Positions 43,063 to 44,540 of a DNA stretch of 64,000 nucleotides are shown one piece after another. The translations under genes and the position numbers were made by a program. The stretch's first letter is position 1; the number at the start of each line of letters is the position of its first letter. Where the stretch lies: NCBI GenBank assembly GCA_963705725.1, contig CAVPKM010000013.1, positions 25,862 through 89,861 on the forward strand, written 5' to 3'. This DNA is from an uncultured Gammaproteobacteria bacterium (lineage in GTDB: Bacteria > Pseudomonadota > Gammaproteobacteria > UBA6002). The notes under the pieces were generated by a model that did no database searches, was not told where the DNA came from, and saw only the letters and a list, made by a program, of their open reading frames with translations.

Positions 43063-44540
43063 TCAGCGCACTTGGCTAACCAGCAGTGCTCGATCAATAT
43101 TATAAGGAAGGAGTTTTTCGTAATCTTCAATCGTGTTGCATCGAGGTATGACGTCAAGCACATATCGCAAATAATCATATGGCTCAACTTGATGATACTT
43201 GCAAGTTTCAATGATGCTAAAAATTGTTGCTGCTGCATGAGCGCCAGCTACACTATTAGCAAAGAGCTAACCTTTTCTGCCGATTACAAAAGGTTTAATG
43301 CCTCGCTCAGAAAGATTATTACTAATATCGAGATGTCCATCATCAAGAAATCTTAATAATTTTGGCCATTGATTGAGTGTATAACCTACCGCTTCTCCTA
43401 ATAAACTTTTTGGTGGGATAATAGATTGATGTTTGATGAGATAATCCTGTATTTCATTGATAATCACTTTCGATTTAGCTTGTCGAATAGCCTGTTTTTC
43501 TGCAGCAGATAAGATTTTTATTTCTTCTTCAATCACGCGGAGTTTTGAAATGAGTTTAACAATATGCCAAGCCACCCCTTCTTTATTTGGCATGAGCTTT
43601 GTAACTTCAATAAATTTTCGTCTCGCGTGATACCAACAGCCAACCAGTTTTATCGTTTTTCTTTTTCCCGCTAATGTGTCATACCCAATGAAGCCATCAC
43701 AGTGTAAGTAGCCTGAAAAATCCGCAAAAAAAGCATCGGCGACTTCGTGTGAGCGTGAAAAAAAAAAAAAAAAAAAAAAAAAAAAAAAAAAAAAAAAAAA
43801 AAAAAAAAAAAAAAAAAAAAAAAAAAAAAAAAAAAAAAAAAAAAAAAAAAAAAAAAAAAAAAAAAGATCATAAGTTAATATTCGATCATGCATTAGTTTT
43901 AAAATCGGCAGCAAAAGTTCAGCACACTTGATCACCCATAAACATAATGTGGCTCGAGGAATATCCACACCAATACGTTTTAATATTTTTTCTTGGCGAA
44001 ATAGCGGCAAGTGATCTTGAAATTTTGAAACCAATACGTGACTTAATAATCCACTTGCTGCAATACTCCTTGGAATAGGTGCAGCAGGTTGTTTTGCTAG
44101 CTTAATGGTTTCTTGACATTTTTTGCAGGCATATTTTTTTCTGATATGCTCGATGACATAAATTTTTGCTGGAATAATTTCGAGTTGCTCGCTTTTTTCA
44201 TCTTCAGATAAATCATAAATTCTAGGTATACTAAGTAATTCTGCAGGTAGTGCTCTTCTCCCTACCTGCTTACTTTTAGTATAAGAAGCAACCGTGATGA
44301 CTTCTTCTTGTGATAAGATTTTCTCTTCTGATTTAGGCAATACCGCCTCATCAAAAAGAGAAATTTGATTAGGATTAATTTTCTCGGGTTTATTGGAAAA
44401 TTGGCGAAGTCGATAGGCAAGAATTTGCTCTTCTAAAAATTGAATTTGTTTTGCTTGTTCAAAAAGGAAGGTGTTTTTTGTTGAATTATTTTAATTAATT
44501 CTTCTTTTGATATCGCTTGTAATTCATGAGAGCTATCCAT
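43063..44540 (-). mobile_element. tnpC: IS66-family transposase TnpC, degraded
   Basis: N-terminus MDSSHELQ…; …RLRQFSNKPEKI…QISLFDEA…; Zn-finger CKKCQETI; …LVGCWYHARRKF…; C-terminus LFANSVAGAHAAATIFSIIETCKYHQVEPYDYLRYVL. Defects seen: frameshift near 44475, the 108-nt poly(A) tract replacing ~45 codons, and an in-frame TAG where TnpC proteins have Trp (GRK[W]LFAN). Confidence 0.75.
43758..43865. repeat. 108-nt uninterrupted poly(A)/poly(T) homopolymer
   Basis: Counted directly from the sequence lines; it encodes a 36-Phe run inside the IS66 tnpC reading frame. Confidence 0.95.

Follow-up and report, generated by a model that had tools for sequence, protein, structure and literature searches.

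A 108-nucleotide run of adenines in a decayed IS66 transposase gene is very probably filler for missing sequence

The window, that is, the whole 64-kb stretch of DNA analyzed here, contains an unbroken run of 108 adenines within the remnant of an IS66-family transposase gene, tnpC (Table 1). We consider it very probable that this run is a non-biological filler of some kind and not a real feature. Because it is pure and sharply bounded, because the gene continues collinearly on both of its sides, and because a segment of conserved length has been lost between these flanks with 108 nt standing in the place of 132 nt, the run is best understood as a placeholder for sequence that the assembly failed to resolve.

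A count of base runs over the entire window agreed exactly with the preliminary description, which had reported a perfect poly(A) tract of 108 nt at this position. The run is bordered on the left by ...GAGCGTG (in fuller form ...GACTTCGTGTGAGCGTG) and on the right by GATCATAAG... (in fuller form GATCATAAGTTAATATTCG...), and it shows neither interruptions nor degenerate borders. The second-longest homopolymer of the 64 kb measures 10 nt. At the given base frequencies (A = 0.293, T = 0.310), runs of this length are expected by chance about 6.6e-51 times per 64 kb; the GC content of the window is 39.8%. Only the letters A, C, G, and T occur in the window, and the count of N is zero. Read on the minus strand, the run translates to Leu followed by 36 Phe, and the ORF at 43267..44340 passes straight through it, so that the reading frame is kept as had been described. 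A GATC motif adjoins the right edge of the run (43862–43869), where the relatives read GAT ATT. GATC is a Dam/DpnII/Sau3AI site and is commonly used as a restriction site in library and Hi-C preparation; its occurrence at the edge could be due to chance, or could be a hint of the end of a library or restriction fragment.

Table 1. Coordinates of the adenine run, the surrounding mobile elements, and comparable runs in a provirus (positions in the window unless a locus is named).
Feature	Position	Strand	Basis
A108 run (T108 on the tnpC coding strand), filler for 132 nt (44 codons)	43758..43865	.	run-length count and alignment with relatives
IS66-family tnpC pseudogene; start ATG 44540-44538, family stop TGA 43065-43063	43063..44540	-	Pfam domains, DNA alignment with L001, L002, L003, translations
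In-frame TAG; TGG in all relatives (Trp of GRKGWLF)	43267..43269	-	translation, protein and DNA alignments
Site of 45-nt in-frame deletion relative to L001, L002, L003	44206..44207	-	DNA alignment
IS66 tnpB 3' fragment (LEISQTQLHGLLAGLDFSLMRHFSEINYYQYA*), last ~100 nt	44581..44682	-	DNA alignment with relatives
Right-hand end of IS66 remnant, ...GGGCTGATTAATTAGCGGATAC	43039..43062	-	DNA alignment
IS256/Mutator-family insertion sequence truncating IS66 tnpB	44690..46191	-	Transposase_mut E = 2.8e-120, inverted repeats
Intact 410-aa IS256-family transposase	44897..46129	-	Pfam Transposase_mut
Imperfect 31-nt terminal inverted repeats of IS256-family element	44690-44720 and 46161-46191		
A187 in IMGVR_UViG_2706794495_000003	L081 1386-1572		
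A184 in IMGVR_UViG_2706794495_000003	L088 2634-2817		
A107 in IMGVR_UViG_2706794495_000003	L091 5610-5716		

The ORF traversed by the run matches the Pfam domain DDE_Tnp_IS66 (PF03050; E = 1.5e-64) in two stretches parted by the run, and it also matches zf-IS66 (E = 1.6e-12), which confirms the earlier placement of the tract in an IS66 transposase gene. The CWYHARRKF and HCDG motifs are retained in the protein alignment. Besides this TnpC with its DDE_Tnp_IS66 domain, the usual components of a functional IS66 element are absent or damaged. Firstly, neither an intact catalytic core nor an uninterrupted ORF is present: the DET motif falls into the replaced codons, an in-frame TAG interrupts the gene, whose homologous frame goes on past this codon to the family stop, an in-frame deletion of 45 nt has deprived the zf-IS66 zinc finger of its first Cys pair, and the DNA alignment with relatives revealed a frameshift close to the 5' end (N-terminal). 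Secondly, the order tnpA-tnpB-tnpC between two terminal inverted repeats is not found. The homology of the tnpB fragment to its relatives ends at about 44682, at the start of the IS256-family element, and neither tnpA nor the left end of the IS66 remains, both having been removed or displaced by that element. At the other side of the remnant, the terminal sequence ...GGGCTGATTAATTAGCGGATAC is shared by two relatives (L001 and L002), and homology stops near 43039. In view of the stop codon, the deletion, the N-terminal frameshift, the truncated tnpB, and the missing tnpA, tnpC is an inactive remnant independently of the adenine run. The preservation of the reading frame, which the preliminary description had put forward as a clue, thus carries no meaning, because at least three other lesions inactivate the gene and because lengths of 108 and 132 nt agree in frame with a chance of one in three. 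The run itself is without function, and its host gene was already inactive.

What the run replaces was determined by DNA alignment of the region with the closest relatives that could be obtained (L001, L002, and L003–L008). The nearest of them, L001, comes from a MAG of the Gammaproteobacteria and has 84% identity at the amino-acid level and approximately 80% at the nucleotide level. In the protein alignment the window reads ...LMHDRILTYD-L-F36-SRSHEVADAFF..., whereas an 81% identical relative (P0001) reads ...MHDRILTYD-IAYVDETTLQVLKELNKTIKSKKYMWLYSGGPKEQFVYYYQYHP-SRSHEVADAFF.... Between ...LTYD and SRSHEV... 44 codons (132 nt) are therefore absent and 108 nt stand in their place, of which, according to the DNA alignment, at most three T's could be native. 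Homology of the flanks to L001, L002, and L003 reaches both junctions of the run and is collinear. The replaced stretch comprises exactly 44 codons, free of gaps, in all 41 relatives from GTDB genomes and JGI metagenomes that have at least 50% identity over it, and it includes the D-E-T motif with the first catalytic Asp of IS66 TnpC. The earlier estimate that about 45 codons of the TnpC catalytic core had been replaced is accordingly refined to 44 codons with the DET motif among them, and the collinear flanks together with the missing 132 nt bear out the suggestion of a replacement or filled gap rather than a simple insertion.

The same comparison argues against a genuine chromosomal poly(dA:dT) tract, about 108 bp long, that grew when replication slipped in a pseudogene decaying neutrally under weak repair; a slippage-expanded tract had been among the explanations of the preliminary description. 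The host gene is indeed under no selection, as its several inactivating lesions indicate, and the genome is AT-rich; judged from the IS66 relatives, the host probably belongs to a Legionellales/Coxiellales-like lineage, and such lineages tolerate pseudogenes. However, slippage would lengthen an existing run and leave its flanks intact, whereas here 132 nt of gene sequence have been lost; about 66 nt on each side would have to have been deleted, and the loss precisely replaced by the run. No run from which expansion could have started was found in any relative: T-runs longer than about 5 nt are absent from the coding strand of the aligned relatives, and no homopolymer of at least 15 nt occurs in 925 kb of the relatives' loci. 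Interruptions and degenerate edges are missing as well, and the other homopolymers of the window do not exceed 10 nt. To our knowledge, documented bacterial homopolymer tracts reach roughly 20–30 nt at most; a run of about 108 nt would be highly unstable and hard to sequence pure and at an exact length. Literature on the length limits of homopolymers and on poly(A) sequencing artifacts yielded nothing directly usable. The phase-variable homopolymer tracts of contingency loci resemble the A108 run in lying within a reading frame, but the A108 run is about five times longer than such tracts or more, and replaces sequence instead of extending a run; moreover, there is nothing for it to switch, because the gene is already dead. 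We thus regard a genuine tract of about 108 nt as very unlikely, and this holds for slippage in the neutral pseudogene as it does for the broader case in which either runaway slippage or a patch of the reverse-transcriptase or terminal-transferase type at an intron-targeted segment would have produced it. If genuine, it would far exceed in length every homopolymer known from a bacterial genome.

A patch of that latter kind was considered because of a group II intron in the closest relative. In L001, positions 2586–4477 are occupied by such an intron (Rfam RF01999 and RF00029), which encodes an ORF with RVT_1 and GIIM domains and lies in tnpC between YMWL and YSGG, within the very 44-codon stretch replaced in the window. 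The IS66 might accordingly have been broken, perhaps in connection with such an intron, and then repaired by cDNA or by non-templated addition of A's. A search of the window detected neither a reverse transcriptase gene nor intron RNA, so that a group II intron within the window was rejected as the cause, and the junctions of the run carry no intron remnant and no target-site duplication. Such enzymes are known to add a few nucleotides without a template, not 108. Long pure A-runs in genomic DNA are also left by LINEs and processed cDNAs; however, those poly(A) tails follow an inserted body, whereas here the run alone was inserted, without duplication of the flanks, without a reverse transcriptase nearby, and in a bacterial chromosome. 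Altogether, repair by a reverse transcriptase appears scarcely credible to us. A multicopy intron at this stretch in the source genome, if there is one, would nevertheless break the assembly at this spot, although this lead is weakened both by the lack of intron RNA and reverse transcriptase in the window and by the gap estimate of 108 nt, which would be far too small for it.

The reading of the run as a placeholder implies the following sequence of events. The assembly would have left about 132 nt of the degenerate IS66 tnpC unresolved, and two collinear sequence ends would have been joined over this hole, which was sized at about 108 nt. The hole could then have been written as A in one of two ways: either A's came to stand for a sized gap, in place of N's, on the way from the scaffolder to the file, or poly(A) reads without signal were used to fill it during gap closing or consensus building. 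We infer that the tract is absent from every DNA molecule of the organism, and the identity of the software step that wrote the A's is likewise a point of inference. A length close to, yet different from, the missing 132 nt is what an estimate of gap size from insert sizes would give, and is not expected of an insertion, of slippage, or of a chimera. In line with this, a conserved segment is missing between collinear flanks, and the placeholder is uniform. Mobile elements cluster at this site, in a draft assembly with a longest contig of 243,247 nt: the IS66 remnant adjoins an IS256-family element found on three contigs. Clusters of this kind are typical trouble spots for assembly. Of the three explanations offered at the outset, it is the assembly or scaffolding artifact that the evidence favors.

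Several observations count against a filler. No 9-mer is common to both flanks of the run within 200 nt, in contrast to two runs in viral contigs (L081 and L088; see below), and hence the duplicated overlap of contig ends that a gap may show on its two sides is lacking. The remaining window looks accurate and contiguous, and the IS256-family element was assembled through. A second copy of the IS66 does not occur in the 64-kb window, where nothing marks the missing stretch as a repeat. Outside the window, the best IS66 match had 84% amino-acid identity among GTDB representative genomes (L001) and 72% in JGI metagenomes, and the plasmid collection gave a match of 93 nt only. As no closer copy of the IS66 was found, the native 132 nt can be deduced only from the relatives. 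The nearest RsmH in the collections is 69% identical, which implies that they include no conspecific genome.

Compared with sized scaffold gaps and the products of gap closers, the A108 run shares the collinear flanks, the missing conserved segment, the near-true length, the uniformity, the sharp edges, and the setting in a mobile-element cluster, but differs in being written as A instead of N and in having flanks without a duplicated contig-end overlap. Assembly gaps are conventionally written as N, and the conventional gap comprises 100 N. Two specific versions were considered as well. A standard gap of 100 N extended by native A's was rejected, since at most three T's of the coding strand can be native. 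Masking of native sequence at the same length is disfavored, since the segment measures 132 nt in 41 of 41 close relatives, although an additional deletion of 24 nt may have occurred in this pseudogene.

A special case of the filler is that the public record gives the gap a size of about 108 N, and that these N's were turned into A's during preparation of the window, for instance by a 2-bit or ACGT-only encoding. The restriction of the window to A, C, G, and T would fit such recoding, as would the value of 108 for a missing 132 nt, which resembles an estimated gap size. Furthermore, the ORF across the run was absent from the protein collection in each of the 10 exact forms looked up (five start variants with poly-Phe, one form containing X, and four partial forms), and a search with 163 aa returned no self-match, while neighboring proteins from the same contig are present; this absence is compatible with A as well as with N in the record. 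On the other hand, the stores of the loci keep N (41 N in L013 and isolated N's in L089 and L194), and other public sequences contain long runs written as A; one of them, L089, has N's as well. In addition, 108 differs from the conventional gap of 100 N, and no more than three flanking T's could be native. We therefore treat recoding as a possibility, but a rather doubtful one. For the viral contigs discussed next, the preservation of N in these stores indicates that the A-runs were not made by the search collections.

Precedents for A-runs in the role of a filler were sought by looking for A100 in 2.9 million contigs of viruses and proviruses. The scan yielded 38 stretches, mostly 100–123 nt long and located at the extreme ends of contigs or in extremely AT-rich low-complexity DNA. 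In one provirus from a draft genome, IMGVR_UViG_2706794495_000003, three runs (A187, A184, and A107) interrupt normal coding sequence. A187 and A184 each have one and the same 25-nt sequence on both sides and lie beside an ORF resembling Hin/Gin-type invertases; these 25-nt sequences are read as invertase crossover sites, at which the runs would mark breaks in the assembly graph. The 25-nt sites of the two runs are the reverse complement of each other, but both fillers read A on one and the same strand. Biological inversion of a copy would have turned A into T, so that A187 and A184 are placeholders. Long A-runs thus do occur as gap fillers in public assemblies. The fillers of this provirus and the A108 run have in common that they are pure A-runs (107–187 nt for the former) interrupting the otherwise normal coding sequence of draft genomes where the assembly can be expected to break. 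They differ in that the proviral runs lie at invertase crossover sites with a 25-nt duplication, whereas the A108 run lies in a transposase pseudogene without duplication of its flanks. Among other viral contigs, two T-runs in related contigs from different metagenomes have identical flanks (T113 in L097, 6921–7033, and T126 in L115, 9317–9442); here, either an assembly gap recurs at one site or a truly long and variable viral tract is present.

The contig-end runs bear on yet another explanation, a single chimeric or artifactual molecule or read that entered the consensus, be it a poly(A)-tailed fragment, a product of terminal-transferase tailing, or a read without signal. Poly(A) runs of 100–123 nt at contig ends were the commonest class among the 38 stretches, and such reads evidently do get assembled; the GATC at the right edge of the A108 run could also be fitted to this explanation, though it may be due to chance. 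However, beyond the run the sequence resumes collinearly, in the same gene and on the same strand, at an offset that falls just 24 nt below the expected one. A tail should precede an adapter or unrelated sequence, and the return to register would be unmotivated. The chimeric read with a poly(A) tail, although among the explanations of the preliminary description, therefore fits poorly, and we consider it improbable.

As a filler, the A108 run is a quality flaw of a public draft assembly and has no biological importance. It creates a spurious ORF of 357 aa with 36 consecutive Phe residues, and hides the region of the catalytic Asp in the transposase pseudogene. Screens that look for hypermutable tracts, for the tails of retroelements, or for unusual repeats would wrongly pick it up. 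Since gaps in public assemblies are filled by A-runs besides N-runs, as the IMG/VR provirus exemplifies, genome scans should mask such A-runs.

The surroundings of the run are those of an ordinary bacterial chromosome. The RNase P RNA is located at 40239–40578, and two tRNAs are found in the vicinity. From position 52118 onward, an ORF resembling mraZ is followed by rsmH (Pfam PF01795) and by large intact ORFs. By their order and size these read like the cell-division and cell-wall (dcw) cluster, with rsmH as the one member confirmed by a profile. The IS256-family element next to the IS66 remnant looks intact and is probably active or recent, since a transposase of identical protein sequence is present on three contigs of the collection. 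Beside the remnant on its other side, an ORF of 364 aa (41937–43031) has a weak Pfam match to VRP3 (E = 4e-4, below the gathering score), the family of the SpvC-type phosphothreonine lyases. This ORF may encode something like an effector, as would suit an intracellular organism of the Legionellales/Coxiellales-like type. The region from 46.2 to 52.1 kb contains short ORFs only and looks like a variable island. Two of them, at 48561–48899 (112 aa) and 49803–50153 (116 aa), are paralogous and have Gly-rich hydrophobic cores, and their C-termini are nearly identical (YKNPPSCAFFKSETPS...IFNPV..PGQDL). Between these two lies an ORF of 114 aa (49100–49444) that reads like a putative toxin of the RelE/ParE type.
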